Shown here in pieces: positions 22,837 to 46,212 of a DNA stretch of 64,000 nucleotides. Source of the stretch: an uncultured Bacilli bacterium (GTDB lineage Bacteria > Bacillota_I > Bacilli_A > RF39 > UBA660). The notes beneath the pieces are model-generated. The model was given only the letters and a program-made list of their open reading frames with translations, was not told the origin of the DNA and ran no database searches. The stretch lies in contig OZ007038.1 in assembly GCA_963931685.1 (NCBI GenBank), positions 810,940-874,939 of the forward strand, in the 5' to 3' direction. The translations under genes and the position numbers were made by a program. Positions within the stretch are counted from its first letter, which is position 1; each line of letters begins with the position of its first letter.

Positions 22837-22854
22837 GCTTTTTTTATTTAAAAA

Positions 22855-22870: not shown

Positions 22871-23118
22871 GCACTTAAAAAGTGAAAAACCACATAAATG
22901 TGCACTAATTAAATGTACTATTATTATATTCAAATACGATTATTTTATTCATATATAAAGCAAAAACTAGCTTACGCTAGTCTTTGAAACACAACTTCCA
23001 TATATGTAAAAACATACATGCATTAATTAAATGTAATTTAATTATACAGATATTTAGATCTTTTGTCAATTTTTTTCAAAAAAGTTTTTGAAAAATTTTA
23101 CAAAAAAATTTTTAATAA

Positions 23119-23850: not shown

Positions 23851-23867
23851 TTACTACACCTCACTAA

Positions 23868-24953: not shown

Positions 24954-25275
24954 GATAATCTGCCACTCCTTTCAAATTAACTTTCTTACATTTTCTTAAC
25001 GAATCATCATCTAATTTTTCTGATAATGGTTCTACTATTAATCTATAATTCCTATTAATTTTAATACCAAAAAGATTATCTAAATTTCCTACAAGAGGAT
25101 GAGGATCACCCAAGCCGATATCTAAATACTCTTTAAAATTATCTGCTGCCCTAAGTTGATCTATTCTCTGTTTTAGTGCTCTTGTCATATCAATACCAAT
25201 AGTCTTCTTTAAGTTCTCAATATCACTTAATTTCTTTTCTAACCTTCTGTTATCAGCTTCGATTTGCAACCTCAA
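24922..25275 (-). CDS. HigB-like (RelE/ParE superfamily, 'killer protein') toxin
   Basis: 117 aa with ...PHPLVGNLDNLFGIKINRNYRLIVEP...LKGVADYH, the HigB-type pattern. It overlaps the antitoxin start by 32 nt. Confidence 0.6.
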   Translation of the reverse strand: MRLQIEADNRRLEKKLSDIENLKKTIGIDMTRALKQRIDQLRAADNFKEYLDIGLGDPHPLVGNLDNLFGIKINRNYRLIVEPLSEKLDDDSLRKCKKVNLKGVADYHDGKCEWLIP

Positions 25276-25364
25276 CCCTCCTTTCGTTTTTAGATTACCT
25301 AATAGGTAATTTTATTATATGCTATTTTTTATTTAAATACAACCCTTTTAATAAAAAAAGTTGT

Positions 25365-25553
25365 CTATTTTAATTTAGATAACTCTATATAATCTTTTTC
25401 TTTACCAATTCTTTTTAAATAATCTTTGCCTCCATCAATTGCTACTGCTCCACAAGAACATCTTTTATAATCATTTGTACTTTTCGATTCTATAATATCT
25501 CCGCATTTTTTACATTTGATTTTGTTACTTATTATTTCTTCTTTCTTTTCCAT
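25365..25553 (-). CDS. small zinc-ribbon protein
   Basis: 62 aa with CKKCGD...CSCG, four Cys in a ribbon arrangement. Confidence 0.45.
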   Translation of the reverse strand: MEKKEEIISNKIKCKKCGDIIESKSTNDYKRCSCGAVAIDGGKDYLKRIGKEKDYIELSKLK

Positions 25554-25740
25554 AAGTCATCGCCTCATAATGTATTATATCATGATCTTATACTAATTAT
25601 ATCCTTCTGTTTGCGGTATAATACCATTACAACCATACGGATGAAATCTATATTGTCCGTATCACTGTAAAAAAATCCATTGAGAATTTTTGCCACTTTC
25701 GGTATTTTTTCTCAATGAACTACTTTAAAATCAAATTTTT

Positions 25741-25763
25741 TTGTACCTAAATTGTACCTAAAA
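25741..25763 (+). repeat. 23-nt repeat TTGTACCTAAATTGTACCTAAAA, right copy
   Basis: Identical to 9740-9762 and lies inside the island, about 70 nt from the right direct repeat. Confidence 0.6.
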
Positions 25764-25833
25764 TTATTTTAGCAATATCGATGCCTCACAAACCCTTATA
25801 AAATGGGCATAAAAAATGAGAGCACTGTTAAAT

Positions 25834-27967: not shown

Positions 27968-27984
27968 ATTTTTCCTCCTTTTAG

Positions 27985-29653
27985 TAACTATTCAGACTAT
28001 GGCACGCAAAAGTAAAGAGTAATCAGTGATTGATTGCTCTTTTAATTTGCAAATAACACTTTATTTTCAAATATTGCATTAATAGACTCAAAAGGGTTTA
28101 TATTCCTTTTGATAGATGTCTTTATAATTGATAAGGTATTAGCAAAATCTTGGGCAACATTTATGCTTCTAAAGCCTCCTGATATTTTCGTTTTGTTTTT
28201 AAATATTCTTAAATCTCTTTCACTTAGGTTATCATCAAAGGGAACTTTAAAATCTTCTATAAAATACAAATGATTTTGTTTATATTTTACCAATCTATTA
28301 TATAATGGTTTGGCCTTGGTTACCCTGTAATATGAAGATTTTATTTGTTTGTTTTCTTCTTTGGCTAGCTCTAAAATTTCTTCATATTCATCTTTGTATT
28401 CTTTTATCTTATCATCAGAAAATTTTGTTAATCCATAAGCTATAGCTATCTTTCTTGTATTATTCATTCTAAATATTAAATCATACATTAAAAATGGCCA
28501 TTTCGTATCTGGTATATTTTCCATCAGTTCCATTAAATATCTTCCCAAGTGAATATTACATTCATAATTTTTACTACCATAACTATATAATGTTGTATCA
28601 TGATCACCCATTATTCCTCCACAAAATCTTGGCAATATATTATCTTCTTTAATTGGATTATGACCTTTATTTTTATGAACTTTATAGACTACATTCTCTT
28701 CATTACTATAATTTCTTACATATAGCTTTTTCTTATTGAATTTGGTCCCAGTTTCATCAGTAAATCCATTGTCCTTATTTAAAAAGTTATTTTCTAAATT
28801 TATTATTGTAGCTTTACTTTTGTTCCCAAATTCTTTTACAAAATTTACTAATGTTCCATTAGAAATATTATAAACATTATTTGTCACCACACTAAAGAAA
28901 TCACTTAATCTATTATAAGCAACTACGTTATAACATCCTAAATGAATCGATAATGTCTTTATACTATTTCCATATGTCACATCTGTATAAAACTCTTTTG
29001 GCAGTGTTTCTGAAGACTTATCATCATATTTAAATATATGTTTTTCTATGTATGGCTTAATTTCTAATTCATATCTATATTTTATTAAGGGCTCTTTTTT
29101 GGGATTACCCTTGATTGTATGAATAATTTCTCTAACTTCAACTTTATTTTCACTTATTAATTTTTCTGCATCTTTTTTACTTAAATTATATCCTTGATGA
29201 TTATATTGACCGCCTTTCTTTTTGCCGGTTATAGTGCGATAATTATATAAATTAGCTCCTGTTTTCTTTTTAGGCGTAACAATATTAGTCGATGATGGTT
29301 TACTAGAATTATTACTGTTTTTATTATTTTGATTTTTTAGTCTATCTATTTCATTTAATAATTTTTGGATAGTTTTATCTTTTTCTAAAATAATAGCTTT
29401 TAATTCATCTTGTTTTTCTTTGAACTCTTTTTTCAATTCTTTATTTTCTTTAAACAATATATCTAACTTATTATTTAATTCTTCGAATTGTCTGTAAAAA
29501 TCTACAGTTACTGTCATCGTTTTTATTTTTGCCATACTATCACTATCCTCAACTATTTTTATTTTCTCATATTTAAACGAAAAAAGCAGTATCATTGACA
29601 CTACTTTTTACACTTTATTTTTATTTTCTATTCTTTATAGTCTGAATAGTTAC
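27985..29653 (-). mobile_element. IS66-family insertion sequence (single-ORF, ISBst12-like group), 1669 bp
   Basis: Perfect 17-bp terminal inverted repeats GTAACTATTCAGACTAT (27985-28001 and 29637-29653). The flanking 8-bp direct duplication is TCCTTTTA (27977-27984 and 29654-29661). Confidence 0.85.
28042..29535 (-). CDS. IS66-family transposase
   Basis: It has an N-terminal coiled coil/leucine zipper and a DDE region: ..DETGTKF.. / ..GGIMGDHDTTLYSY.. / ..ECNIHLGRYL... Preferred start is ATG 29535 (MAKIKTM). Confidence 0.7.
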   Translation of the reverse strand: MAKIKTMTVTVDFYRQFEELNNKLDILFKENKELKKEFKEKQDELKAIILEKDKTIQKLLNEIDRLKNQNNKNSNNSSKPSSTNIVTPKKKTGANLYNYRTITGKKKGGQYNHQGYNLSKKDAEKLISENKVEVREIIHTIKGNPKKEPLIKYRYELEIKPYIEKHIFKYDDKSSETLPKEFYTDVTYGNSIKTLSIHLGCYNVVAYNRLSDFFSVVTNNVYNISNGTLVNFVKEFGNKSKATIINLENNFLNKDNGFTDETGTKFNKKKLYVRNYSNEENVVYKVHKNKGHNPIKEDNILPRFCGGIMGDHDTTLYSYGSKNYECNIHLGRYLMELMENIPDTKWPFLMYDLIFRMNNTRKIAIAYGLTKFSDDKIKEYKDEYEEILELAKEENKQIKSSYYRVTKAKPLYNRLVKYKQNHLYFIEDFKVPFDDNLSERDLRIFKNKTKISGGFRSINVAQDFANTLSIIKTSIKRNINPFESINAIFENKVLFAN

Positions 29654-31972: not shown

Positions 31973-32119
31973 AAATAACCCCTTTTGTTGATGTGAACCC
32001 TGTTTGGTAGACATCATAAAAAAACCGGGTTTAAAAAATCAAGGGCGAACGAAGTGAGTTCATCTAGACCCTTGATTTTTATTATATAGTTACAATATTA
32101 TGACAAATAAAGCTTGCCT

Positions 32120-32956
32120 TTATTTGTTATTTTTAGGATATTTATTTTTCTTGGTGGCTTTTTTGCCTTTAAGTCTATCATTATTATAAAATTCTATCCA
32201 TTCTTTAACTAAGGTTATGTATTCTTCCAAAGATGTGATATTATAATTGTATAAAGTTTCCTTTTTAAGGAGAGAGTGCCAGCTCTCTATCGGTGAATCA
32301 TCTATAGGTGTGCCTTTTCTAGCCATAGATATTTGTATGCCATTAGACTCACAGATAGCTTTGTATTCATAAGATGTATATTGGAATCCTTGGTCACTAT
32401 GCAAGATTAATCCATGTACATCTTTTCTTTTTGATATAGCTTCATTTAAAGTGTCCATAACAAGTTTGTTATCATTATATTTAGATATTTTATAAGCGAC
32501 AACTTTTCTATCATATAAATCAATTATTGTAGATAAATAAGCTCTAGCTCCTTTATATATTAGATAAGTTACATCGGTATCCCATACTTTATTTGGCTTA
32601 TCAGTATTAAAGTTACGTTTTAACAAATCAGGTTTGACATTATCTTCTATCCTCTCATTTTTATTCTTTTTCTTTGCTCTCCTAATATAATTAGGCATTA
32701 AATTATATCTTTTCATTATTCTTAAAACCTTCTTTCCATTCATTATAACCCCATATTTTCTCTTTAGGCCTTCCACAATTCTACGATAGCCATATGTGCC
32801 TTTAGAATCATCAAATATTTCTTTAATAACTAAATAATCATAATAGTCAGAATCTTCCTTATTTCGATATTTATAATAAGTTTTTGGGCTTATTTCTAAT
32901 ACGGCACACATGTTATATAACTTATATTTATCCCTATATAAATTAATAAAAGTCAC
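32120..32956 (-). CDS. IS3 transposase OrfB (DDE/rve catalytic domain), expressed as an OrfAB fusion by -1 frameshift
   Basis: DDE residues lie in WDTDVTYL, LHSDQGFQYTS and ESWHSLLKKE. The -1 frame is open from the A7 run (32998) into orfB. Confidence 0.8.
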   Translation of the reverse strand: MTFINLYRDKYKLYNMCAVLEISPKTYYKYRNKEDSDYYDYLVIKEIFDDSKGTYGYRRIVEGLKRKYGVIMNGKKVLRIMKRYNLMPNYIRRAKKKNKNERIEDNVKPDLLKRNFNTDKPNKVWDTDVTYLIYKGARAYLSTIIDLYDRKVVAYKISKYNDNKLVMDTLNEAISKRKDVHGLILHSDQGFQYTSYEYKAICESNGIQISMARKGTPIDDSPIESWHSLLKKETLYNYNITSLEEYITLVKEWIEFYNNDRLKGKKATKKNKYPKNNK

Positions 32957-33249
32957 TTTCTCTCGCGTTGTTCCTTGAGGAAGGCCCGGTATTTTTTTAG
33001 TATTTCAAATCTTTCTTTATAATCTTCTTTGGTTAAATCTTTTTCTTTGGGTCTACCACTGCCAACACCTGCATTAGGATACAATTCAGGATGATTTACA
33101 AATTTTCTTTTCCAAGTTTTAACTGTATATAAAGGAATATTATTTTCTTTAGACAATCTTGTAGCAGGTATTCCTTTTTTAAGTTCATTTACAATTTCTT
33201 GAATAAAAGTATTATCATATTTAGCAAATTTTTGCCCTTTTTTAGCCAT
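32953..33249 (-). CDS. IS3 transposase OrfA (HTH)
   Basis: 98 aa with an HTH followed by a leucine-zipper-like tail. It ends just past the slippery run. Confidence 0.8.
   Translation of the reverse strand: MAKKGQKFAKYDNTFIQEIVNELKKGIPATRLSKENNIPLYTVKTWKRKFVNHPELYPNAGVGSGRPKEKDLTKEDYKERFEILKKYRAFLKEQRERK
32992..32998 (-). promoter_or_regulatory. programmed -1 ribosomal frameshift site (A AAA AAA)
   Basis: CTA AAA AAA TAC in the orfA frame. Slipping -1 reads KKIPGLPQGTTREKVTFINLY, continuous with OrfB. Confidence 0.7.
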
Positions 33250-33352
33250 AATAAATACACCTCCTTTCGGAAGTGTATTATATCATAACCCTTAAATTAG
33301 GATTTTTTTATTGTCTACTCTATGGGGTGCATTTCATGTACGGGGGTTATTT

Positions 33353-33845: not shown

Positions 33846-34181
33846 TTAACATTTTAGTTCAACTTGTGCATCTTTAGCTTTTCCATTTTTGTAATTAATT
33901 GTTACATTAGCAAAGGTATTTGTTTTATCACATTTTTCTAATCCTTTTAAATCATATTCTTCACCATTTTTATTAGCGTTTTCTAAATCTTCTAAAGTAA
34001 TTTTATACATGTTTACACTATCGTTTGCGCTTACATATTCTTCAAAATAAGCTTTACTTGCTGTTTTCATTTTATTTTCTAGTTTTGTATTTTGACTTTC
34101 AATATTTTCAATATATAGGTATACTCCTACTCCAGCAGCTAAAAAAATGATTAAAACGATTATTGGAATTACTTTTTTCAT
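33846..34181 (-). CDS. membrane-anchored hypothetical protein
   Basis: 111 aa with an N-terminal TM (VIPIIVLIIFLAAGVGVYLYI). Confidence 0.45.
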   Translation of the reverse strand: MKKVIPIIVLIIFLAAGVGVYLYIENIESQNTKLENKMKTASKAYFEEYVSANDSVNMYKITLEDLENANKNGEEYDLKGLEKCDKTNTFANVTINYKNGKAKDAQVELKC

Positions 34182-34199
34182 TATATTTCCCCTTCCTTT

Positions 34200-35522
34200 T
34201 TAAAAATAATTTTTGAGTAGTGCATTTAGTTCAACAGCATATTCCATTGGTAAATTTTCTCTAAATTCATCAATAAAACCAATTATCAATAATTCTTTTG
34301 CTCTTTCTTCATCTAATCCTCTACTCATTAGATAAAATAATTTTTCTTCATCTAGTTTTGATACTGTAGCTTCATGTTCTAGATATGAAGTTGAATTTTC
34401 AACGATGTTTTTTGGAATCGTGTCGCTTTTTGATTTATTATCTAATATTATTGTATCACATTTAATGGTACTTTGGGAATAAACTGCATCTTTACTAATT
34501 TTTACTGTTCCTCTATAGTTACTTATTCCACCACTTGCGGCTATTGATTTACTAATGATTTTACTTGTTGTATTAGGGGCCAAATGAATCATTTTAGCTC
34601 CAGCATCTTGAATTTGATTTTTTGATGCGACAGCAATAGATATACAATCTCCACTAGCTCCTTTTCCTTTTAAAATACATGATGGATATTTCATATTAGT
34701 TTTTGAACCAATATTACCATCAATCCATTCCATTTTACCATTTTCATCAACAATAGCTCTTTTAGTGACTAGATTATATATGTTACTAGCCCAATTTTGA
34801 ATGGTTGTATATCTACAGCTGGCGTTTTTTCCAACAAATATTTCAACAACAGCAGCATGGAGTGAACTAGAGGTATGATAAGTAGCTGTACATCCTTCCA
34901 TATAGTGAATATGACTATCATCATCTACTATTATTAATGTTCTTTCAAATTGTCCCATGTTTTTAGTGTTTAATCTAAAATAACTTTGAAGTGGTCTATC
35001 TATAGTAACACCTTTTGGAACATATATGAATGTTCCTCCACTCCATACAGCTCCATTTAAAGCTGTATATTTGTTTTCATCATATTTTACTAAGGTATTA
35101 AAATATTTTTTAAATAAATCTGGATGATTTTTTAATGCATCATCTGTACTACAGAAAATGACACCTTTTTCTTCTAATTCTTTTATCATACTGTGATATA
35201 CAACTTCACTTTCGAATTGAGCTCCAACACCATTTAGATATTTTTTTTCGGCGTTTATTAGTCCTACTTCTTCAAATGTGTCTTTAATAGGACAAGAGAC
35301 ATTATCCCAGTTATTTTCTACTTTATCTGTTACTTTTTTATAATAATTTATTTTATCAAAATCTATTTTTAATTCTGGTCCAAAGTTTGGATTTGGTGTT
35401 TCTTTAAATGCTTTATAGGCATTTAATCTGAAATCAGTCATCCACTTTGGCTCTTTTTTTATTTTTGATATTTCTTTTATTTTATTTTCGTCTAATCCAA
35501 GTTCTCTACTCATGACTGTCAC
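34200..35522 (-). CDS. sufB: Fe-S cluster assembly protein SufB
   Basis: 440 aa. The SufB/SufD beta-helix region shows typical strings (FERTLIIVDDDSHIHYMEGCTA, NWASNIYNLVTKRA, ..EHEATVSKLDEEKLFYLMSRGL..). Confidence 0.85.
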   Translation of the reverse strand: MTVMSRELGLDENKIKEISKIKKEPKWMTDFRLNAYKAFKETPNPNFGPELKIDFDKINYYKKVTDKVENNWDNVSCPIKDTFEEVGLINAEKKYLNGVGAQFESEVVYHSMIKELEEKGVIFCSTDDALKNHPDLFKKYFNTLVKYDENKYTALNGAVWSGGTFIYVPKGVTIDRPLQSYFRLNTKNMGQFERTLIIVDDDSHIHYMEGCTATYHTSSSLHAAVVEIFVGKNASCRYTTIQNWASNIYNLVTKRAIVDENGKMEWIDGNIGSKTNMKYPSCILKGKGASGDCISIAVASKNQIQDAGAKMIHLAPNTTSKIISKSIAASGGISNYRGTVKISKDAVYSQSTIKCDTIILDNKSKSDTIPKNIVENSTSYLEHEATVSKLDEEKLFYLMSRGLDEERAKELLIIGFIDEFRENLPMEYAVELNALLKNYF

Positions 35523-35565
35523 CTATTAACATTATACTAGATTTTAAGAAAAATAAAAAGGAATT

Positions 35566-36660
35566 TTAACTTTTAAATTTATAAAATAAGTGATAACAAT
35601 TACCTAATTTAAAATGACCTTTATAACTAGCTATTATATGTTCACCATTTTCTATTTTACCTTTCTCAATCAATTTCATTTTTTTCTTAAATCTTTTTTT
35701 CGTATTATTTCGAACTTTTAAAATAATTTTATCTTTAATATAAAACCTAAAGCCTATAAAATCTACTCCTTCTTTACTAACATTGATTATTTTTGTTTTA
35801 TCATTTAATCGTAAACCATAATCTAAAACAAATTTACTAATTTCATCTAAACAATATTTCAAATATTTTTTATCATACTCAAGTAATATCCCATCATCTT
35901 GATACCTTATATAATATTTAATATGTAATTTTTCTTTAATAAAATGATCCAAATCATTTAAAAAAAATATAGCTAATATTTGACTTACTACATTACCAAT
36001 ACCTAAACCTTTACCTTTTTCATATAATGGTATTCTATTTATTTCATCAATCCTTTTATTTTTATCATTTAAATTACTTTTTTTTAAATAATTAATCTCT
36101 TTTTCCTTTAATTTTAAAATTCTTTCATTCACATAATCTTCATCAGTCGAATCAATTATTTTGAATAATATATCTAAATATTTTTTATCCTTGATTTTCC
36201 TTTTTAACATTCTCTTTAAAACACCATGGTCTATATTATAGAAAAATTTACTAATATCAAATTTTAAAGCATATACCTCACCATTCATACTATTCAAATA
36301 CTTTTTTAAACACCTAATCCCATAACTAGTTCCTTTACCTTTTCTAGAAGCTACATTCGCACTTATTAAAGATGGTTCTAATACCTTAATTAAAATATCC
36401 GCCATTAAATGATTAATTATTTTATCATTAATATTTTGACTCATAATTATTCGATATTTTGGATCTTTAATCAAAAATATATTGTATTTACCAACTTTAT
36501 AATCATTAAGTAACCTAAAAACCTTACTTATATTAGAAGTATAATACTCTTCAAATTTATATATTTTGTTTTTATTCAAAGTGTTTTTTCTAACCACCTT
36601 ATAAGCTTTAATAATATTTTCTATAGTAAAATCATTTACTAAATTACCTACTCTTTTCAT
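35566..36660 (-). CDS. DGR reverse transcriptase
   Basis: RT motifs are present, including YIRYQDDGILL (YxDD) and the DGR-typical LGIGNVVSQ ([LIV]GxxxSQ). Preferred start is ATG 36660 (MKRVGNL). It lies next to Avd and TR. Confidence 0.85.
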   Translation of the reverse strand: MKRVGNLVNDFTIENIIKAYKVVRKNTLNKNKIYKFEEYYTSNISKVFRLLNDYKVGKYNIFLIKDPKYRIIMSQNINDKIINHLMADILIKVLEPSLISANVASRKGKGTSYGIRCLKKYLNSMNGEVYALKFDISKFFYNIDHGVLKRMLKRKIKDKKYLDILFKIIDSTDEDYVNERILKLKEKEINYLKKSNLNDKNKRIDEINRIPLYEKGKGLGIGNVVSQILAIFFLNDLDHFIKEKLHIKYYIRYQDDGILLEYDKKYLKYCLDEISKFVLDYGLRLNDKTKIINVSKEGVDFIGFRFYIKDKIILKVRNNTKKRFKKKMKLIEKGKIENGEHIIASYKGHFKLGNCYHLFYKFKS

Positions 36661-36988
36661 ACCTAATCCACCCATATAACTGCTTAATAATATTTAATAA
36701 AAATTTACCGATTTTCAAATATTTTTTATATGAAATATACTTTTTATCACAAGCTATTTTAAAATAAAAATCAATCATTTTAATTTTACTAATTATCCTC
36801 TTTTGATAAACAATTCTTTCTTTAACATCTAATAAATTACTAAAATAAATTAACTCTAAAACCTCATAATATGTATTAGATATCTTATCTTTTAAAACCT
36901 TTTCAGTCCTTGGAAAATTAACAATAATCTTATCCAAATAAAATATAGTTTTTTTAATATCATTTACAACCTCTAATTTTTCATACAT
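36644..36988 (-). CDS. avd: Avd-like accessory variability determinant (four-helix-bundle protein)
   Basis: 114 aa, helical and basic. It overlaps the RT start. Size and position are typical of DGR Avd. Confidence 0.65.
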   Translation of the reverse strand: MYEKLEVVNDIKKTIFYLDKIIVNFPRTEKVLKDKISNTYYEVLELIYFSNLLDVKERIVYQKRIISKIKMIDFYFKIACDKKYISYKKYLKIGKFLLNIIKQLYGWIRYEKSR

Positions 36989-37383
36989 ATTTTTTCAACA
37001 CTTTCTAAAATATTAAATATTTCTTCATTATATTTAATTTCATTTAATCTCTCATTTATAAACTTAATCCTGTCATTAATAGACAAATTATTTTTCAAAA
37101 ACAACTCATAATTTTTACTATTATAATAGGTAATCAAAGATACATCATTTTCATATACTAAATAACTTATTTTTAATTTATCTAAAGTCTCTAATACCTT
37201 ATTTAATGAACCAATAGGAAAACCAACCTTGATAGTATCACTAAATATACTTACCTTATAACCAAATATATTTTTAATAATATAACAGTCCTTACCTAAA
37301 ACATTATAAAAAATACCATTTTTCATAATTATAATAAATTTCTTCTTTTTATCTTTTAACTCAAAATATTTTTTTCTAAACAT
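36973..37383 (-). CDS. small MutS-domain-I-like protein (DGR accessory ORF)
   Basis: 136 aa from ATG 37383, with GGAGGG 4 nt upstream. FIIIMKNGIFYNVLGKDCYIIKNIFGYKV...VGFPIGSLNKVLETLDKLKISYLVYE parallels the MutS N-terminal pattern (GDFYE..DA......L...LT.......aGvP......yl..L...G..VAi.EQ). Confidence 0.5.
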   Translation of the reverse strand: MFRKKYFELKDKKKKFIIIMKNGIFYNVLGKDCYIIKNIFGYKVSIFSDTIKVGFPIGSLNKVLETLDKLKISYLVYENDVSLITYYNSKNYELFLKNNLSINDRIKFINERLNEIKYNEEIFNILESVEKICMKN

Positions 37384-37666
37384 ATTTCCCTCCAAATTTT
37401 ATATTGTTTGTGACCAAGTGATTTTGACATAAGAAAAAGCAATACCAAAAATTTTAGTATTGCTTAAAATGCAGTCTAATCATAATATATCTTTTTCGTG
37501 AGTTCCACCATTTATAATTTCCTACATAGTATAATTATAAATCTTTCCTACTAAAGTTATATACTTTCTGCACCAATATTCGGATATATCATCCAGGGAT
37601 AATACTTGTTTTCTAAATCTTTTCTTTATGACTATATTAGTTCATAAACCTTAGTTTTATAGAAAT

Positions 37667-37754
37667 CTGGGCGGGGAGCATTATTAGAACTATTATAGGC
37701 GTTATTGTTGTTCACATTCGCATTCGAACTATTCACATAACCGTTCCAAACCCC
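37667..37754 (-). repeat. DGR template repeat (TR), 3' portion in coding sense (88 nt)
   Basis: Aligns to VR 39582-39669 with 18 mismatches, all at plus-strand T (coding-strand A). It starts with the GC-rich CTGGGCGGGGAGC block shared with VR. Confidence 0.9.
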
Positions 37755-39305
37755 CTCACTTACGGACAGTTTTTAAAATGAAATTAATTAGAGGTATTAG
37801 TCGTTTATTGACTAATACCTCTTATTTGCCCTTTTTATGCTATTTTTTCACTATATAGATTTTGTAACTCACTTCTGTTAAAATATTTATAATAAACCCA
37901 TAATAGAAAGAAGTGAGTTACATGTCTAAATTATATAATACTCAAAAAGATATTACAAGTAATTTTGAAGATTTTTTGAAAAATGCTGTCCCTAATATTA
38001 GAAAAACCCAACTTAATATTATTCCTTCCATTTTATTTGGTATTATTCAAGCTGAATCTATTGCTTCTTCTGATATCGCCAAAAACTTAAAAGATAATTT
38101 TTTAGATGTTAAACTTGATTCTGTTATTAAAAGAATTAATCGTTTCTTTCGTAACAAATTATTTGACCCTTATACCTTTTATAAACAAATTATTTCTTAC
38201 TCTCTTTCTACTTATAAAAAGAAACATTCTGACAAAAGAGTTCACATTATTTTTGACCACATGTTTTCTCACGAAAATTATACTACTCTTATGTTTACTA
38301 TGCGTTTAGGTTCTCAAGGCATCCCAATTTGGTTTAAATGTTTTAAAGGTGTTTCTGATAATGATGCCTTCATGATTGATACTATATTACAAGGCATTAA
38401 AGAAGTAAGTGATATGTTCTCTAACTATGATTTCGATCTTATTTTTCTAGCTGACCGTTGGTTTAATTCTTGTGATATTCTTAATTATATTGATTCTTTA
38501 GGTCACACTTACTGTATCAGACTTAAAAAGACTTTATATGTCTATTATTTCGATAAAAAAGAAGGTCACATTATCAGAAAAACTGCAGGTGAATTATTTC
38601 ATTACAAACATCTTTCTACTACTTATAACAACATTACCATAACAAAAAACAAACTTAATTGTAATATTGTTATAAGTGATTCTAAAGATACTGATGATCC
38701 TTGGATTATTGCCACTAATGGTGATTATAAAAGAGCCATTAAAGATTATTCTTATAGATTTGGTGCCATTGAATGTGTTTTTAAAAATCAAAAATCTAAT
38801 GGTTTTTATTTAGAAAAAATTACTACTGCCTCTTTAAAAGCTTTTACTTCTATGTTTTGTTTAGTATGCGTTTGTGTTTTATTTTTAACTTTATTAGGCG
38901 CATATTATTCACGTAATCGTAGTTCTTATAAAAAAGAAAATATTACTACTCATAAAAATTATATTATTAATGGAAAAAAATACAAAAGAAGAATTTTATC
39001 CCTATTTAATACTGGGCTCACATTATTCAAGCGAGCCTTTAATTCACATCACTATGTCACAATTTCTTATAAATTTATTTTATATGATATTTAAATTAAA
39101 TTAAATTTTTTTCTTTATATTCACTATTGTTTTTATCATGCCATTTTTATGGCAATTAATTTACAAATTTAGCCAAATTTTTAAAATTTACTATTTGTTA
39201 TTTTTTAAGCATCAAAAATAGACTAAAATGTACATCACTGGGCGTACTTTTTAGTCTATTTTTCCTTGTATTTGCTTGCCTTTTTTAAAACTGTCCGTCA
39301 TTCAG
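37755..39305 (+). mobile_element. IS4-like insertion sequence (1551 bp) inserted in the DGR TR
   Basis: Imperfect terminal IRs CTCACTTACGGACAGTTTT / AAAACTGTCCGTCATTCAG. The 8-bp duplication is CAAACCCC (37747-37754 and 39306-39313), and VR contains that octamer only once. Confidence 0.8.
37913..39094 (+). CDS. DDE transposase, IS4-superfamily-like
   Basis: 393 aa with ..IIFDHMF.., ..FLADRWF.. and YSYRFGAIECVFKNQKSNGF (a near Y-R-E-K signature). Family assignment is tentative. Confidence 0.6.
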   Translation: MSYMSKLYNTQKDITSNFEDFLKNAVPNIRKTQLNIIPSILFGIIQAESIASSDIAKNLKDNFLDVKLDSVIKRINRFFRNKLFDPYTFYKQIISYSLSTYKKKHSDKRVHIIFDHMFSHENYTTLMFTMRLGSQGIPIWFKCFKGVSDNDAFMIDTILQGIKEVSDMFSNYDFDLIFLADRWFNSCDILNYIDSLGHTYCIRLKKTLYVYYFDKKEGHIIRKTAGELFHYKHLSTTYNNITITKNKLNCNIVISDSKDTDDPWIIATNGDYKRAIKDYSYRFGAIECVFKNQKSNGFYLEKITTASLKAFTSMFCLVCVCVLFLTLLGAYYSRNRSSYKKENITTHKNYIINGKKYKRRILSLFNTGLTLFKRAFNSHHYVTISYKFILYDI

Positions 39306-39313
39306 CAAACCCC

Positions 39314-39348
39314 ATTAGAATTGCCACCAGACTCGTTAGAATAAGCAT
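39314..39348 (-). repeat. DGR template repeat (TR), 5' portion in coding sense (35 nt)
   Basis: Aligns to VR 39670-39704 with 4 mismatches, all at plus-strand T (coding-strand A). Homology ends at 39348/39704. Confidence 0.85.
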
Positions 39349-39510
39349 CTCCACTTATCAATATTACCCCTTATTTTGTTCTATAATCACCCCGCTCTTC
39401 ACTTGCCATAGGCACATGAAGAGCGTTTATTAGGACTCAGTTTGCCTAGCAAACTGGTCCTTTTATAAAGGCTTCGCCTTTACTAATTTGTTCTTATTAT
39501 TGTGTATTTA

Positions 39511-40917
39511 TTACACTATTGTAAATGGATCTTCTGAAGTTCCACTTCCGTTCAAAGTAATATCAGATTTCAAAAAGACAACTGGGCGGGGAGCAGCAGT
39601 AGAACTATAAGAGGCGTCAGAGCTGTACACATACGCAGACGAACTACCCACACAACCGCCCCAAACCCCATAAGAAGAGCCACCAGACTCGTAAGAATAA
39701 GCATTTATTGTCCAATATAATAATGAACTAGCACTTCCTTTATCTAATAAGTAATTACTATTACATTCATTGGAACCATTAGCTGAAGTTGTGGCTGATG
39801 TACACTTTGGATTAGTACTTGCTCTTAAGATGTCTGATACATTAACTAATCCCACATTCCCTGTCCATGTATACATTTTTTCTCCTGCTATGTTTTTTTC
39901 TATACTATCCGCTCCACTTTCATCCAATTCTTCTACAGCTCCTATATTAAATGAATGAGAAGTCATTTGTCCTTTAGCTGTACTATTTAAATTATTTACA
40001 TAATAATCTTCATTTAAATATATTTTTATACTTGAATCTTCGGTTACTGTTCCACTTTGTGATCCGCTAGGTGAAGAGAATGTTCCATCAACTGCTGCAT
40101 ATACTCCACACCCTCTTGATGGATCATCACAATATGAGTTATTTTCTGTACTTCGGTGATTTGATGAATCAAATGGTCTCCTTGCTAGAACATCATTCTT
40201 AATTATTTTATATGTTCCATCGGTTTCTTTGGCTATGATTCTCCATAATTCATCATTGAATTCTATATAATTATTTGGTTTTTTTCCTCTATATATTAAT
40301 CTTCCACTTTCATAACTATCTTCATATAAGCCATCTCCTGATTCTACTATTTCGACTTCTTGGCCTCCTATTGTTTGGTCTCCTCCTGGTGTTATTCCTC
40401 CAGTTCCATCTTTTTGTTTATAATTTAAGGTTACTGTTATTGTTGAACTTGTGTTTTCTGGCTGACTAGTTACACTACTATCATAACTTACGATTACGGT
40501 TAAAATATCACTTTGAGATACTTGTAATTCATCTCCGTTTTCTATTCCACTTGTTTGGAATGTAATTGCTGGATTATTTCCATCATTTACTTCTATACTT
40601 TCTAATACTGCATCAATATTACCTTGATTTTCTACAGTTATATCATATTTCATTGAATCTCCTGGTAAAACTAAGTTGGTTTTAAATGTGGCAGTTGTAT
40701 CTGTATGTGTTGGCGCTTCTGCATCACTTGCCCCTCCACTTTGAACTGTGCTTTGTATATCAGTTATTTTAACTAAAAAGTTACTTGCTATATTTGATGT
40801 TCCTGATATTTTTAATTGTGATTGAAATGCTGCATACCCTACTCCCATTATTACTAATATCATACATAATCCGGCTATTATATAATTCCTATTAGTTCTA
40901 TTTAATCTTTTATTCAT
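39511..40917 (-). CDS. DGR target protein: secreted/anchored protein with a hypervariable C-terminal region
   Basis: 468 aa with an N-terminal hydrophobic signal/anchor (IIAGLCMILVIMGVGYAAF) and Ser/Thr/Gly-rich domains. VR lies 24-64 codons from the stop. Confidence 0.8.
   Translation of the reverse strand: MNKRLNRTNRNYIIAGLCMILVIMGVGYAAFQSQLKISGTSNIASNFLVKITDIQSTVQSGGASDAEAPTHTDTTATFKTNLVLPGDSMKYDITVENQGNIDAVLESIEVNDGNNPAITFQTSGIENGDELQVSQSDILTVIVSYDSSVTSQPENTSSTITVTLNYKQKDGTGGITPGGDQTIGGQEVEIVESGDGLYEDSYESGRLIYRGKKPNNYIEFNDELWRIIAKETDGTYKIIKNDVLARRPFDSSNHRSTENNSYCDDPSRGCGVYAAVDGTFSSPSGSQSGTVTEDSSIKIYLNEDYYVNNLNSTAKGQMTSHSFNIGAVEELDESGADSIEKNIAGEKMYTWTGNVGLVNVSDILRASTNPKCTSATTSANGSNECNSNYLLDKGSASSLLYWTINAYSYESGGSSYGVWGGCVGSSSAYVYSSDASYSSTAAPRPVVFLKSDITLNGSGTSEDPFTIV
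39582..39704 (-). repeat. DGR variable repeat (VR) in the 3' end of the target gene
   Basis: 123 nt encoding NAYSYESGGSSYGVWGGCVGSSSAYVYSSDASYSSTAAPRP. Its 3' end (coding sense) is the GC-rich IMH-like GCTCCCCGCCCAG. Confidence 0.9.
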
Positions 40918-41141
40918 ATGTACTTCCTCCTATTTTTATTATGAATCATTAATATTTTTTTATTCATTAATCTAATTATAAAATATTTTTAAATATTTAA
41001 CAACAGTAATTATTTTCCACTTTACACCTATACACTCTCCTTTTATAATAATTAGATATCTTTTTTTGATATCTTCCTTATTTTGATTATAAAACATATT
41101 TAATTAATTAAGCAATACTTTTTCTTATGTTCTATGTATAT

Positions 41142-41235
41142 TATACCTTTTACGCCCATAAATATTTTACACTTATTATGTATAAATCTTTTATAAACAA
41201 AGGCTTTTCAAACTTTTATAATCGTAAAATATTTT
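41142..41235 (+). repeat. RIT left terminal inverted repeat
   Basis: ATACCTTTTACGCCCATAAATATTTTACACTTATTATGTATAAATC...CGTAAAATATTTT. Its reverse complement matches 44148-44241 with scattered mismatches. Confidence 0.8.
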
Positions 41236-41282
41236 TTTGTTTGATATGATTATTTTGTGAAATTATAAAGGAGGTTGATAAA

Positions 41283-42224
41283 ATGATTTCACAAAATAAT
41301 AAACGGAAACACATCAAAAAATATGTGTTTTCAGGAACTTTACTAGAAGAATATCTGGCTTATACAAGATATTTAGAGGAACTTGAGATTACTAAGGATA
41401 CAATGAAATGGAGGTTAAAACATATCAGAGGCTTTTTAGATTATTTAGATAAACATAATATAGTTATTAATAATATCTTGCCAAATGTTGTATATGATTA
41501 TATGATGTCAATCGATGATTTAAGCGTACGTACAAAAGAACATAGAGCTGTTTGTATTAGACTTTTCTTAAATTGGTTATTTAATAATAAAAAGATTGAA
41601 ACAAGCGGAACTCATATTTTACCGAAAATAAAAAACAACAAACAAGATAAAGTGGCTGCCTATTACTCCAATGAAGAAGTGTCTAAAATATTAAATTCTA
41701 TAAACATACATGACGTTAATGGAAAGAGAGATTTAGCTATTATGTTGTTATTCGTGAGATTTGGTTTAAGAGAACGTGATGTCCAACAACTTAAATTGGA
41801 AAATATTAAATGGAATGACAATAAAATTATAATAGTTCAAAGTAAGAATAAACAAATTAATACTTATCCAATGATACCTGAAATTAAATATGCTTTAATT
41901 GATTATTTAAAAAATGAACGTCCTATTTCTAATTTACCATATCTATTTTTAACCGATTCTAAAAATATATGTACTAGTCATTTTTTTTATAAATTAGTAA
42001 ACAAGTATTTTAGGAAAGCAGAAATAAATACAAGTTACAAAAAACACGGTTCACATTCTTTAAGACATAGTTTGGCTACTTCGTTACTTAATGATGGCAA
42101 TTCACTTTATACTATTTCATCTATTCTTGGTCATAAATATATTGCTGATTCTCAAGTCTATACTAAAGTAGATATTGAAAATTTAAAAAAAATACCTTTG
42201 GAAGTGCCTCTATGGAAAGCTTAA
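41283..42224 (+). CDS. ritA: tyrosine recombinase RitA-like
   Basis: 313 aa with RERD..HSLRHSLATSLL..LGHKYIADSQVYTKV. An AGGAGG RBS precedes it. Confidence 0.75.
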   Translation: MISQNNKRKHIKKYVFSGTLLEEYLAYTRYLEELEITKDTMKWRLKHIRGFLDYLDKHNIVINNILPNVVYDYMMSIDDLSVRTKEHRAVCIRLFLNWLFNNKKIETSGTHILPKIKNNKQDKVAAYYSNEEVSKILNSINIHDVNGKRDLAIMLLFVRFGLRERDVQQLKLENIKWNDNKIIIVQSKNKQINTYPMIPEIKYALIDYLKNERPISNLPYLFLTDSKNICTSHFFYKLVNKYFRKAEINTSYKKHGSHSLRHSLATSLLNDGNSLYTISSILGHKYIADSQVYTKVDIENLKKIPLEVPLWKA

Positions 42225-43126
42225 AAGGTCCCTTCAAAGATATTATTCCACAATTCCAAAACTATAAAAAAAGTCTTGGATATTTATATGATAACATATC
42301 TTCTTTTGTACAGTTAGATAATTTTTTATATAATCAGGGTATTTATGACTTTAATGATACAAAAATTATCTTTGAAGTTTTAATTAAAAATGAGCCAAAT
42401 TTGTCTAAGAAAACAAATAGATATACTTGTTTACAACAGTTATACGAATTTATGGAACTATTAGGATATCACAATCTTTATTTTGAAAATATACAATTTG
42501 ATAAAAAACCAAATTTTATTCCTAGAATTTTAAATGCAAAAGAAATTACTTTATTTTTAAAAAAAATAGACCAATTAAGTATTTTGTTAGATAATGATGA
42601 ACAATATATTTATCCAACTTTATTTAGATTATTATATAGTTCGGGATTGAGAATTAATGAAGCTTTAAAACTTAAGATTACTGATATATCTTTAAAAGAT
42701 GGTACAATAACAATTGTTAAGGGTAAAGGTAATATTGCTAGATTAATACCTTTATCTCCAACCATGAAATGTACACTAACTAATTATTTAAAAATAGTTA
42801 ATTGTAAAACTTATCTATTTGAAATTAATAATAAACCAATTACATATATAAAAGTTGCTGATTTCTTTCATAAAATTACAAATAAAATGTTTGACTTTAG
42901 AATACATGATTTACGTCATACTTTTGCTGTTACTGTATTTAATAATTTATATAAAAAAGGGTTGTCTGAATATCAAATACTTTATTTACTTCACATATAT
43001 ATGGGTCATACAAATATTAAAAGTACAGAATATTATCTACGAATGACAGATGAAACTTACAATAGAATTATAAATAATTTTCATAATAAATATCCAAATG
43101 TTATTCCTAAGGTGGGTGAGATGTAA
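42212..43126 (+). CDS. ritB: tyrosine recombinase RitB-like
   Basis: 304 aa with GLRINEAL..HDLRHTFAVTVF..MGHTNIKSTEYYLRM. It overlaps ritA by 13 nt. Confidence 0.75.
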   Translation: MESLKGPFKDIIPQFQNYKKSLGYLYDNISSFVQLDNFLYNQGIYDFNDTKIIFEVLIKNEPNLSKKTNRYTCLQQLYEFMELLGYHNLYFENIQFDKKPNFIPRILNAKEITLFLKKIDQLSILLDNDEQYIYPTLFRLLYSSGLRINEALKLKITDISLKDGTITIVKGKGNIARLIPLSPTMKCTLTNYLKIVNCKTYLFEINNKPITYIKVADFFHKITNKMFDFRIHDLRHTFAVTVFNNLYKKGLSEYQILYLLHIYMGHTNIKSTEYYLRMTDETYNRIINNFHNKYPNVIPKVGEM

Positions 43127-43127
43127 G

Positions 43128-44129
43128 ATGTTAATGAATTTCTCATATTATATTAAAAAATATTTTACTTCTTATCTTCCAGTTACACGAAATTTAAATT
43201 CTTCTACAATTAGAACTTATAAAAATGATATGCTATGTTTTATTAAATATTTAATAGAAATTAATATAAACGTTGATGAGCTACAATTAAAAGACATAAG
43301 TTTTTCATTTATAGAAAATTATATAAAATTTTTAAAAGATGAAAAAAACAATGGGGCTAAAACTATTAATTTAAAACTCACCATATTAAAATCCTTCTTT
43401 TCATATTTAAGTCTTGAAACTGTAGATGCAATTGATGTTTGTGAAATGGTCAGAAAAATTAAGTTATTAAAACCTGAAGTTACTATTCCTAGTTATTTAA
43501 CAGCCAAAGAAATAGAATGTTTATTAATACAACCAATTAAGTTAAACAATATAAAAGAATTAGCTATTTTAACTCTACTTTATGATGGTGCTTTAAGAGT
43601 TAGTGAATTATGTAATTTAAAAGTAGAAAATATTACTTTGGATAGTATTTCTAAAATTAATGTAGTTAAAAGTAAAAATAACAACTTTAGAATTATTCCC
43701 CTTAATAAGCAAACCACTAAAATATTAAAAAAATATATTGATGAATATAATTTAAACAATAACGATTTTTTATTTACTAATAAATATGGTAAAAAATATA
43801 CCCAAAAAGGAATAGCTTATATTTTAAATAAAAATTATAATTTAGCTAAAAAATATTGTAATGATAATACAATGTATAATTATAAGAGTCATCCTCATAT
43901 GTTAAGGCATAGTAAAGCAATACATTTATTAGAAAGTGGAATTGATTTAATAACTATTAGAGATTTTTTAGGACATAAACATGTAAGTACAACAGAAATA
44001 TATGCGCGTATCACTGATGAAAAGAAAGCAGAAATTTTATTAAAAAACACGAAAAAAAAGCCATTAAAACTCAAACGAAGAAAAAAACAAAGAGAAAATT
44101 TAGAAAGTTGGTTAAGAGAAAACTATTAA
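43128..44129 (+). CDS. ritC: tyrosine recombinase RitC-like
   Basis: ALRVSEL..HMLRHSKAIHLL..LGHKHVSTTEIYARI. Preferred start is ATG 43128, one nt after the ritB stop and behind GGTGGGTGAG. Confidence 0.75.
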   Translation: MLMNFSYYIKKYFTSYLPVTRNLNSSTIRTYKNDMLCFIKYLIEININVDELQLKDISFSFIENYIKFLKDEKNNGAKTINLKLTILKSFFSYLSLETVDAIDVCEMVRKIKLLKPEVTIPSYLTAKEIECLLIQPIKLNNIKELAILTLLYDGALRVSELCNLKVENITLDSISKINVVKSKNNNFRIIPLNKQTTKILKKYIDEYNLNNNDFLFTNKYGKKYTQKGIAYILNKNYNLAKKYCNDNTMYNYKSHPHMLRHSKAIHLLESGIDLITIRDFLGHKHVSTTEIYARITDEKKAEILLKNTKKKPLKLKRRKKQRENLESWLRENY

Positions 44130-44147
44130 GTTTTTTCTCTTTTTTTC

Positions 44148-44241
44148 AAAATATTTTACGATTATAAAAGTTTGAAAAGTCCTTATTTATAAAGGATTTA
44201 TGCAAAATAAGTGTAAAATATTTATGGGCGTAAAAGGTATA
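44148..44241 (-). repeat. RIT right terminal inverted repeat
   Basis: AAAATATTTTACGATTATAAAAGTTTGAAAAG...GTGTAAAATATTTATGGGCGTAAAAGGTAT, the inverted partner of 41142-41235. Confidence 0.8.
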
Positions 44242-44265
44242 TTTTGCCCTTAAGGACAAAATATA

Positions 44266-44277
44266 CCCCCCCCCCCC
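44266..44277 (+). repeat. C12 homopolymer tract
   Basis: Twelve consecutive C. A partly complementary G7TGGTGG lies at 44345-44358. Confidence 0.9.
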
Positions 44278-44435
44278 TATAAAAATGTCAAGTAAGTTTA
44301 CACTTTTTTTATAAAAAAACATTATGTTTACCACATATATTAAGTTGGGGGGGTGGTGGTAAACTAAAAGTAGAAGGCAGAGGGTATAATTGTAGACAGT
44401 TATAAAATAACTTTTATGCAATAATATTTTAATGA

Positions 44436-45028
44436 AACTCCCCGCAGCAAGCTACGGGGTATCTTTTTGTGCGATGTCTTTAAAAGACATATATAATTGC
44501 TTATACTCAGTATCTTGTTTACCTTGATTTTTTACATACTCTCTAATTACTGTTTCATTTTGATTTTTGCCTACCGTTGCCACAAAATATCCGTCTGTCC
44601 AAAACTGTCCTCCCCATAGTTTTTTCTTTACCTCTGGGCATTCTGAAAAAATTTGTCTTGCAGTTATACTTTTTATTATTTTTACTATTTGACTTGGAGA
44701 ATAATTTGGAGTGCTTTGTACTAAAAAATGTACATGTTCTTTATCTGTTCCTATCTCCAAAAAACTTATGTAATCATATCTTAATTCTATTCCAAGACAA
44801 ATTTGTTTCAGATGTTCATCTACTGTTTCTTCAAAAACAACACGAAGGTATTTTGCTGGACATACTATATGGTAAACAAGATTACTTGCATTATGGGATA
44901 AATAAATATATTTGCTTTCTTCCATGACATCGCCCTCACTACGTATTATCATACTACGTTCGGCTTTACGCTGCAAGCAGCGGGGAAATGCCCTAGAGTT
45001 TAGGCATACACTGTATGCCTAAACTTAT
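44436..45028 (-). mobile_element. IS200-type element (tnpA only); boundaries approximate
   Basis: A Y1 HUH transposase gene is flanked by hairpins: CCCCG-N10-CGGGG (44440-44459) at the 3' end, and an 11-bp perfect stem GTTTAGGCATA/TATGCCTAAAC (44998-45024) upstream. Confidence 0.65.
44452..44925 (-). CDS. tnpA: IS200/IS605-family Y1 transposase TnpA
   Basis: HVHFLVQSTPNYSPSQIVKIIKS (HUH motif) and ..WTDGYFVATVG.. (catalytic Tyr region). Preferred start is ATG 44925 (MEESKY). Confidence 0.85.
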   Translation of the reverse strand: MEESKYIYLSHNASNLVYHIVCPAKYLRVVFEETVDEHLKQICLGIELRYDYISFLEIGTDKEHVHFLVQSTPNYSPSQIVKIIKSITARQIFSECPEVKKKLWGGQFWTDGYFVATVGKNQNETVIREYVKNQGKQDTEYKQLYMSFKDIAQKDTP

Positions 45029-45097
45029 TATAGATATTTTACGTTCATTATGTATAATTTCTTTATAATAAATACAAAAAAACTTTAAATTTTTGGT

Positions 45098-45529
45098 TTA
45101 AAGTTTATCTTTAATTTGATTTAATATTTTTTCAATGCCCCACCATGATAATAAAGCACATTTTTTTCTATTTGGATTTTTATAGATATCATCATAAACA
45201 ATAGCTTCTTCTAAAACATTAGCATCATATGGTTTTTCATCTAACATATTTAGAAAATTTTGTAAAATATTCTCAGCCTCTTTAGTTGTTTTACCGATTA
45301 ATGTTGTTATCATTATTGAGGTTGAAGATGTACTGATAGCGCATGCTTCTCCATCAAAGCGAATATCTTTGATAATTCCATCTTCTATTTTAACTTCAAG
45401 ATTTACTTCATCTATACAGCTTTCGTTATTCATATTTACTTTCATATATGAATCATCATTTAATAATCCTTTATTTTTGGGATTTTGATAGTTTTCTAGA
45501 ATTATTTCTCTTTTTATATTACTATCCAT
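45098..45529 (-). CDS. sufU: SufU/IscU-like Fe-S cluster scaffold/sulfur-transfer protein
   Basis: 143 aa with YQNPKNKGLL.., ..ESCIDEV.., ..GEACAISTSS.. and ..RKKCALLSW.. (conserved Cys ligands). Confidence 0.8.
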   Translation of the reverse strand: MDSNIKREIILENYQNPKNKGLLNDDSYMKVNMNNESCIDEVNLEVKIEDGIIKDIRFDGEACAISTSSTSIMITTLIGKTTKEAENILQNFLNMLDEKPYDANVLEEAIVYDDIYKNPNRKKCALLSWWGIEKILNQIKDKL

Positions 45530-46212
45530 TACATATCACCTTCGTTTTCTCCATAAACTGTTTCATCTAGTTCAAAGTAAAAGTTTCTAAGCTGTTCAAA
45601 TGAACAAAAGAATACTGTTGGTAAATTTAAGGTAGCTTTTTCTTTTAATGATTTAATAACATCTAAAATATCATCAGCTTTTTTAGTGTTTAATTTACTA
45701 AATTGTTTATCTTTATAAATTGATACACCACATTTACCTTGACTATATAATGTTTCATTGGTTGCGAATAGAATATCAGCTTCTATTATGTTATTTATTA
45801 TTTTAGCAATATTATAAACTGTATTCATTAAAGTTAAATTATGAGTTTTATTTTCTATGGTTTGTTCTTCAACTATTTCTTTTATTCTAGTAAATAATTG
45901 GTCATCATCTTTGCTTTCACATGAAAGTTCAGCATATATTTTACCTTTACTAGATCTAATATTAAACTCACTATCAGGTATTTCTAAGGTTAAATCGATT
46001 AGTCTACCAATTGTGTTTAAGTGAGCATGATCTAGTGTTAGTATGATGTATGCTACTTTATTTTTACCATGGCCTTTGCTTGCTAGCGTTGGAACGATTC
46101 CATTGTTATAACAAGTATGGAGCAAAAGTTCTAAAGAACGTGAATCTTCAGCCATTTCGTGAAAATAAATCCCTCTTTCTTTATCATCTTCTATATTAAT
46201 ATTTTTAATCAT
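45529..46212 (-). CDS. hypothetical protein co-transcribed with sufU
   Basis: 227 aa. Its stop overlaps the sufU start. No motif recognised. Confidence 0.4.
   Translation of the reverse strand: MIKNINIEDDKERGIYFHEMAEDSRSLELLLHTCYNNGIVPTLASKGHGKNKVAYIILTLDHAHLNTIGRLIDLTLEIPDSEFNIRSSKGKIYAELSCESKDDDQLFTRIKEIVEEQTIENKTHNLTLMNTVYNIAKIINNIIEADILFATNETLYSQGKCGVSIYKDKQFSKLNTKKADDILDVIKSLKEKATLNLPTVFFCSFEQLRNFYFELDETVYGENEGDM

Follow-up and report, generated by a model that had tools for sequence, protein, structure and literature searches.

In a 64,000-nucleotide stretch from the genome of an uncultured Bacilli bacterium (GenBank assembly GCA_963931685.1, contig OZ007038.1, forward-strand positions 810,940 to 874,939; hereafter the window), a 1551-bp insertion sequence (IS) lies inside the template repeat (TR) of a diversity-generating retroelement (DGR). 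We estimate a probability of roughly 0.7 that the IS recently hit a working DGR of this low-GC gut Bacilli lineage (G+C content of the window 27%; a relative of 'Firmicutes bacterium CAG:822'), and that mutagenic homing was most likely lost or reduced thereby. The two parts of this reading differ in strength. The structural part, a genuine transposition of an IS into the TR of a once-working DGR, is almost certain from the sequences compared here, and a resulting loss of DGR function is probable. The DGR is encoded on the minus strand in the order target gene with variable repeat (VR), leader, TR, spacer, an open reading frame (ORF) resembling MutS domain I, the accessory gene avd and the reverse transcriptase (RT) gene.

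The template repeat is split by an insertion sequence

On the plus strand, the homology between TR and VR falls into two blocks. Positions 37661-37754 align with 39576-39669 (94 nt, 79%) and positions 39306-39348 with 39662-39704 (43 nt, 91%). The IS occupies the interval between the two TR segments and splits the TR after nt 43 (nt 43/44). It is flanked by an 8-bp duplication, CAAACCCC (GGGGTTTG when read on the DGR strand), at 37747-37754 and 39306-39313, which is present as a single copy in the VR (39662-39669). Deletion of the IS together with one copy of the duplication yields a reconstructed TR of 123 nt, whose GC-rich 3' end, GCTCCCCGCCCAG (37667-37679), lies within the 3' fragment.

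The reconstructed TR differs from the VR at 22 positions, and all 22 are adenines in the TR. Thus, 22 of the 36 TR adenines are substituted and none of the 87 non-adenine positions is changed; by chance such a pattern would be expected with a probability of about (36/123)^22, or ~2e-12. Four of the mismatches are found on the 5' side of the insertion point and 18 on the 3' side, and all 14 AAY codons of the TR are altered in the VR. Since every mismatch falls on an adenine and both sides of the insertion point are affected, the VR must have been rewritten from an intact TR before the IS was inserted, and recently enough for no ordinary substitution to have accumulated since. An earlier reading of the window from its letters and ORFs alone (the sequence-only reading) had proposed that the VR was diversified before the insertion and that the former TR could be reconstructed. 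Both proposals are fully borne out by these data, and the reconstruction is matched by the empty site of a relative, as described below.

The terminal inverted repeats of the IS comprise 24 nt and are 83% complementary. Their core occurs within the window at the two IS ends only, with 0.09 occurrences expected by chance. The single gene, which takes up most of the element, most likely starts with the ATG at 37922. Its product matches the IS4-family model NF033591 (E 1e-21 over 314 of 340 profile positions) and PF01609 (E 3e-4), with scores below the curated cut-offs of PF01609 and of every IS4, IS1634 and IS701 model. Homologues (n=1291), many of which carry PF01609 (DDE_Tnp_1), are typically found on contigs of ~1.5 kb, which is how a multi-copy IS looks in short-read assemblies. 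The canonical IS4-family signature is Y-(2)-R-(3)-E-(6)-K. The YREK-like motif at residue 276 of the transposase, YSYRFGAIECVFKNQK, reads Y-x2-R-x4-E-x6-K, with R and E separated by one residue more. The protein is a divergent IS4-type DDE transposase, for which the Pfam DDE_Tnp_1 assignment is weak. Three hairpins with z-scores from -3.3 to -6.9 were found in the element. One of them pairs with the ribosome-binding site and start codon of the transposase gene; a fold-back hairpin over the transposase start is typical of IS elements. Most of what the sequence-only reading had said of the element is borne out, namely its position between the two breaks of TR homology, the inverted repeats, a DDE-type ORF, internal terminator-like hairpins and a flanking 8-bp duplication found once in the VR. 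Its 393-amino-acid DDE transposase is retained as a plus-strand gene, with a probable length of 390 amino acids and the weak domain assignment just mentioned.

The insertion results from genuine transposition

A second copy of the IS, identical at 1551 of 1551 positions, is located on a 1.33-Mb contig (L040), where it is flanked by an 8-bp duplication of its own, AAAATAAT. Thereby both boundaries of the element are fixed. Further copies are 94% (L086, flanked by ACTATTGT), 96.5% (L088) and 91% (L087) identical, and the left boundary is shared with the copy of CAG:822. In the closest relative found, L045 (RT 96% identical), the site is empty. Positions 1-1824 of L045 correspond to 41123-39306 of the window and positions 1817-6225 to 37754-33344; the alignment is collinear, and its 8-nt overlap is the duplication. 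Over TR nt 1-83, and hence across the junction, the L045 sequence does not differ from that of the reconstructed TR, and it has a single GGGGTTTG. The insertion is recent, because the IS is 100% identical to its second copy and the RT, Avd and MutS-I-like ORFs are still intact.

Two explanations without any transposition into the TR, both named by the sequence-only reading as outcomes that would refute it, were weighed against these data, and both fail. The interruption might be an assembly artefact, a chimeric join via the repeated IS in a strain whose true TR is intact; the IS is multi-copy and short-read contigs do break inside it. Against this, the window is identical to part of a 604-kb long-read contig (ena:ERZ21549406:tig00016541), and other contigs of up to 1.54 Mb share the gene neighbourhood of the DGR. 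The left IS/TR junction, ...ACTGTCCGTAAGTGAG followed by GGGGTTTGGAACGG..., is found identically at the ends of five short-read contigs from different runs or assemblies (L001, L004, L005, L037 and L035; from ERR11860623, ERR11860598, ERR11860615, ERR11860619 and ERZ21549444), as well as in long-read contigs. It is present in every contig of the strain that reaches the TR, and an uninterrupted TR is absent from all contigs that carry an identical MutS-I-like gene. When exact matches to the RT, to the MutS-I-like protein and to the target protein were looked up, these led to IS-bearing or too-short contigs, with no IS-free allele of the same strain among them, and a metagenome scan with the RT returned one close locus only, the decayed CAG:822-type locus L046. 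The perfect 8-bp duplication, like that around other copies, also speaks against a misassembly, which is thus ruled out as far as assemblies show; we consider an artefact very improbable. Still less credible is the bare possibility that the two parts of the TR arose independently as partial repeats of the VR and were at no time contiguous. The search for relatives with an uninterrupted TR proposed by the sequence-only reading was successful: one contiguous TR of 120-123 nt is found at the same place in L045, L006, L041-44 and L008. Together with the identity and collinearity of L045 across the junction, this refutes independent partial repeats.

Organization of the DGR and its RNA

The features of the DGR and of the IS are listed in Table 1. 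The target protein has an N-terminal membrane anchor or signal and a weak immunoglobulin-like match (PF22544), which is its sole profile match. Its C-terminal domain, for which a ligand-binding C-type-lectin (or Ig) fold would be expected in a DGR target, gave no sequence match in Pfam or the PDB. The protein ends with ...RPVVFLKSDITLNGSGTSEDPFTIV before the stop codon, which follows the end of the VR by 23 codons, and the AAY codons are in frame. The Avd matches span the whole profile, yet both scores, against PF22296 and NF033474, lie below the curated cut-offs. The RT carries IGNVVSQ at residue 226 and YQDD at residue 258, as expected for the DGR type ([LIV]GxxxSQ, YxDD). Its closest solved structure is a reverse transcriptase chain of 328 amino acids (8ub7_A, E 1e-30), the same length as that of the BPP-1 enzyme bRT, which we take to be 328 amino acids long. 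The MutS-I-like ORF between TR and avd is kept in all intact relatives and appears to be a MutS-like DGR accessory gene.

Table 1. Positions of the DGR and IS features in the window
Feature	Position	Strand	Basis
DGR target gene, 468 aa	39511..40917	-	ORF list, translation; 1786 homologues
VR, 123 nt	39582..39704	-	Alignment to reconstructed TR
Empty canonical site of the IS family, ACTATTGT, in last codons of target gene	39515..39522	.	Comparison with occupied L086, L087, L088, L008
Conserved leader between target stop codon and TR, 162 nt	39349..39510	-	87% mean column identity among relatives
TR 5' fragment, TR nt 1-43; last 8 nt (39306-39313) are one duplication copy	39306..39348	-	
IS4-like insertion sequence, 1551 bp; left inverted repeat 37755-37778, right inverted repeat 39282-39305	37755..39305	+	Terminal inverted repeats, identical copy L040, empty site L045
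Right-end IS hairpin; transposase terminator on plus strand, UUUUUG after hairpin on minus strand	39214..39263	.	z -3.3
Transposase gene, 390 aa with ATG start; 393 aa if GTG at 37913 is the start	37922..39094	+	
14-bp perfect stem pairing with transposase ribosome-binding site and start codon	37863..37922	+	z -6.9
Hairpin in left IS end, terminator-like on DGR strand, before exit to TR 3' fragment	37786..37826	.	z -6.5
TR 3' fragment, TR nt 36-123, 88 nt; holds second duplication copy (37747-37754)	37667..37754	-	
Conserved spacer 3' of TR, 283 nt, candidate priming or 'Sp' region	37384..37666	-	93% mean column identity among relatives
MutS domain I-like accessory ORF, 136 aa	36973..37383	-	PF01624 E 2.8e-5, exceeds gathering score
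Avd accessory gene, 114 aa	36644..36988	-	PF22296 E 3e-8, NF033474 E 4e-12
DGR reverse transcriptase gene, 364-369 aa, apparently intact	35566..36675	-	PF00078 E 5e-18

The cassette is located between nifU and a sufB/D-type gene (33846-46212 in the comparison with L041 and L045), and this synteny is conserved in the lineage. By its conserved position the DGR is thus a long-resident chromosomal one and not prophage-borne. No second VR, TR or RT was found in the window.

The leader contains three hairpins (about 39397-39483; fold -50.2 kcal/mol, z -7.8), and a terminator-like hairpin was found by a terminator scan at the end of the spacer (37465-37437). Conservation is higher in the leader and in the spacer than in the TR, which differs considerably between relatives. 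Thus, leader, TR and spacer are probably parts of one functional RNA. A search of the three segments against Rfam gave no relevant RNA family; with its conservation and hairpins, this looks like a discrete structured DGR RNA without an Rfam family. A consensus scan also placed a promoter-like site at the leader (39525-39496). In all, 16 promoter-like matches were found as compared to 15.5 expected by chance, and promoter scans, being at chance level in such AT-rich DNA, were set aside as evidence.

Consequences for mutagenic homing

The predicted TR RNA unit, consisting of the leader hairpins, the TR, the ~200-nt conserved spacer and the terminator, would now be cut in two. The IS places 1.55 kb between the leader with TR nt 1-43 and TR nt 36-123 with the spacer, and a contiguous TR able to template a full-length cDNA is no longer found in the window. 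A transcript arriving from upstream would meet a terminator-like hairpin of 20 bp, followed by UUUUUG, about 45-90 nt into the IS (39263-39214), and a 13-bp hairpin with a U-rich tail (37822-37790) just before it could leave the IS toward the TR 3' fragment. That fragment and the spacer are predicted to have no promoter of their own and to be preceded by this hairpin. With the TR cut in two and transcripts stopped by the hairpins of the IS, full-length TR cDNA presumably could not be made, so that mutagenic homing into the VR would be abolished or strongly reduced and the present VR allele would be fixed.

Several points weigh against a complete loss. The 88-nt 3' fragment still has 27 of the 36 TR adenines as well as the GC-rich end and the spacer. 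In the DGR of BPP-1, identity of 8 bp or more between cDNA and VR allows integration at the 5' side, and a TR from which a large internal part is deleted can still act as donor (PMC3240598). By analogy, the 3' fragment could support homing over VR nt 36-123 if it were transcribed by read-through or from an outward promoter borne by the IS; promoter-like hexamers are present on the minus strand near 37900-37958, in a number no higher than chance. Furthermore, a second RT or TR elsewhere in the genome, outside the window, may act in trans. The identity of the VR across contigs also had to be discarded as a sign of freezing: the target protein sequence is the same in all 6 contigs carrying the gene, with no other member in its 90% cluster, and the IS-free relatives L041-44 share a single VR across four samples as well.

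A DGR that is truncated rather than dead, in which the 3' TR fragment and spacer are transcribed and short cDNAs integrate so that the 3' two-thirds of the VR still diversify, would build on these points. It would have 11 of the 14 AAY codons at its disposal, together with intact RT, Avd and MutS-I-like ORFs, and in BPP-1 cDNA still integrates into a VR without its first 20 bp (PMC3240598). This alternative appears unlikely to us, since the 13-bp hairpin with its U-rich tail stands between the promoter-like sites (37958-37900) and the end of the IS, those sites occur at chance frequency, the conserved leader hairpins are now 1.55 kb distant, and no VR variant of the target protein is present in the protein collection. 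We therefore prefer the reading in which homing is lost or strongly reduced.

A possible site preference of the IS family

At many unrelated loci, members of the same IS family (transposases 58-100% identical) were also observed, always in one orientation, within the last codons of genes of the DGR target type (...RPVxxLKS...GxGTxxxP[FY]T[IL]...). Copies in the last codons with transposases at least 90% identical are present in L086 (8410-9949), L087 (4835-6372), L088 (about 4834-6300) and L008 (1-546)/L046 (4651-4715), and copies with a 58% identical transposase were seen in the right flanks of L091, L092 and L096. In every case the transposase gene is convergent with the target gene, and the position of insertion is constant. 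Perfect local duplications were found in L086 (ACTATTGT), L091 (ATAACTGAT) and L092 (CTAATGTAT); the L096-type site appears to have CCAAAGTAT, and L087 and L088 have an imperfect duplication or none. As each of L086, L091 and L092 has its own local duplication, the copies in the last codons are independent insertions and were not inherited from a single event. In reverse complement, the IS terminus (CTGA... or CTGAGTAA...) completes the Val codon with its last base and adds a stop codon in frame. The encoded protein then ends with DPFTIV, identical to the end of the uninterrupted target gene in the window.

About a dozen sites make up this sample, several of which were reached through target-gene searches and are therefore biased, so that the preference is a lead and not a result. 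Look-ups by other transposase variants, which are free of this bias, again landed beside target-family genes (L087, L088, L091, L092 and L096); for a third transposase subfamily (P0137) the contigs end before the right flank. With this sample, it is a tentative proposal, to which we give a little less than even odds, that the IS family is specialised on DGR-target-type surface-protein genes, inserting in one orientation into their last two to four codons, some nucleotides ahead of the stop codon, which is replaced by one in its own terminus so that the protein stays the same, and that it drives recurrent DGR decay.

The insertion in the TR is either an off-target event of an IS that is habitually found beside DGR targets, or an unrelated random hit. 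A near-miss of an IS drawn to DGR target loci would fit with the repeated occupation of the last codons in a constant orientation, with the own duplications wherever both flanks are readable and match, and with the canonical site beside this TR, about 170 bp away, being empty. On the other hand, neither the site in the TR (CAAACCCC) nor that in L040 (AAAATAAT) has evident similarity to the canonical site, the sites are few and partly biased, and the enrichment could in part reflect dispensable DNA in which insertions are tolerated. Altogether, a near-miss is rather unlikely in our view.

DGR decay in relatives and other mobile elements

Decayed forms of the DGR were found in related loci. In 'Firmicutes bacterium CAG:822' (L008, RT 93% identical), a member of the IS family that shares 96% identity over 547 nt has entered the target gene 9 nt ahead of its stop codon. 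It thus lies between target and leader (1-839), and the TR is intact. The human-gut contig L046 has the same junction (4651-5008). Here, 65 nt of the IS are left and run directly into an aldo/keto reductase gene that is truncated, and the target has been lost. In L009 (5040-5995), the RT has lost its first 147 codons (residues 148-367 are kept) and is located beside an aspartyl-tRNA synthetase gene, with no TR.

An orphan paralogue of the target gene is present in L086, on tig00016541 about 125 kb from the DGR (6770-10100). It encodes 470 amino acids, is 84% identical and carries the IS copy in its last codons, followed by 150 nt of a DGR-type leader (98% identical), beyond which unrelated genes begin. 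TR, Avd and RT are lacking at this locus. Its VR-like region was considered as a further recipient of the window TR and this was rejected, as with each of the TRs examined non-adenine positions account for about half of the mismatches. The locus looks like the remnant of a second DGR or like a dispersed target.

As compared to L041 and L045, three further mobile-element insertions are present in the window, namely an IS3-family element with an rve transposase (31989-33343), an IS66-family element (27983-29652) with an 8-nt overlap at the empty site, and a block at about 41148-45076 with an IS200-type Y1 transposase and three consecutive tyrosine recombinase genes (41283-44129). The genome is thus IS-rich. 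About 18.6 kb (about 7212-25812), between the RecG-side and the metal-repressor-side homology, are absent from L041. This segment contains a phage-type integrase gene (21727-22836), HigB-like and MazF-like toxin genes and large ORFs (10931-17656), and is probably an integrated element or a defence island. A 392-amino-acid ORF at 56155-57333 on the minus strand was considered as a second copy of the IS and rejected, as it encodes an unrelated IS200/IS605-type TnpB of the RNA-guided endonuclease family (E 5e-112).

Comparison with known systems

The DGR described here resembles that of BPP-1 (mtd VR, TR, avd, brt) in its TR/VR pair with adenine-specific differences, in the location of the VR at the 3' end of a surface-protein gene, in the GC-rich 3' end of both VR and TR, and in having Avd plus an RT with the [LIV]GxxxSQ and YxDD motifs. 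Unlike the phage-borne BPP-1 DGR, it is chromosomal, has the order target, TR, MutS-I-like ORF, avd and RT, a long structured and conserved leader and a spacer of about 270 nt, and its TR is split by an IS.

That mobile elements disrupt core DGR parts in nature is known from Thiohalocapsa PB-PSB1, in which an RT is broken by a transposon, arrays resembling miniature inverted-repeat transposable elements replace the TR of DGR 7, and intact and degraded DGR variants coexist (Dore et al., PNAS 2024; PMC10907252). The novelty suggested by the sequence-only reading is limited by that work, as transposon-mediated DGR decay including TR loss has already been published (PMC10907252); our literature search turned up no description of a TR that contains a complete IS. 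In contrast to Thiohalocapsa, the window has one complete and recently active IS with intact ends and a duplication, cleanly inside the TR, the other DGR parts are intact, and the empty site is known in a relative. The host also belongs to a different phylum, as a member of a gut Bacilli lineage, and no IS-free variant of the same strain was found here.

With IS4-family elements such as IS10, IS50 and IS231, the IS shares a single DDE ORF, terminal inverted repeats, an 8-bp duplication, a fold-back hairpin and homology to NF033591 (E 1e-21). It differs from them in its sub-cut-off scores, the R-x4-E spacing and its marked bias toward the last codons within a single gene family. Tn7 at attTn7 downstream of glmS and integrative elements in the 3' ends of tRNA genes insert at a conserved gene 3' end and rebuild the gene. 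By comparison, the IS family is alike in its recurrent position and in preserving the host product, here by a codon base and stop codon supplied by the IS. In contrast to those elements it is a simple DDE IS for which no targeting protein or integrase was identified, and its target is a multi-copy, fast-evolving surface-protein family and not a housekeeping gene.

Overall, the locus adds a clean case to a type of event that is already known, and its value is that of a natural control for DGR activity and not of a new mechanism. It represents a probable natural knock-out of a DGR template, and for this template the point of insertion and the sequence before insertion are known, as is the empty site of a sister lineage. 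The strain could be used to ask whether VR variation stops once the TR is cut, how much of the TR is needed in a non-model DGR, and at which rate an unused RT/Avd cassette decays. When taken together with the decayed relatives, the results show that a conserved chromosomal DGR of uncultured gut Bacilli has repeatedly been lost through IS activity. If the proposed specialisation of the IS family holds, every DGR visited would have an active IS no more than about 200 bp away from its TR, and the hit in the TR of the window, the loss of the target in the CAG:822 lineage (L046) and the orphaned target in L086 would be instances of the resulting decay. Should the insertion in the TR also excise precisely via its 8-bp repeats, it would constitute a reversible off-switch for hypermutation. 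An IS family located at the 3' ends of DGR-target-type genes, where it rebuilds the stop codon, may bear on the choice of safe sites by mobile elements and on the turnover of DGRs.

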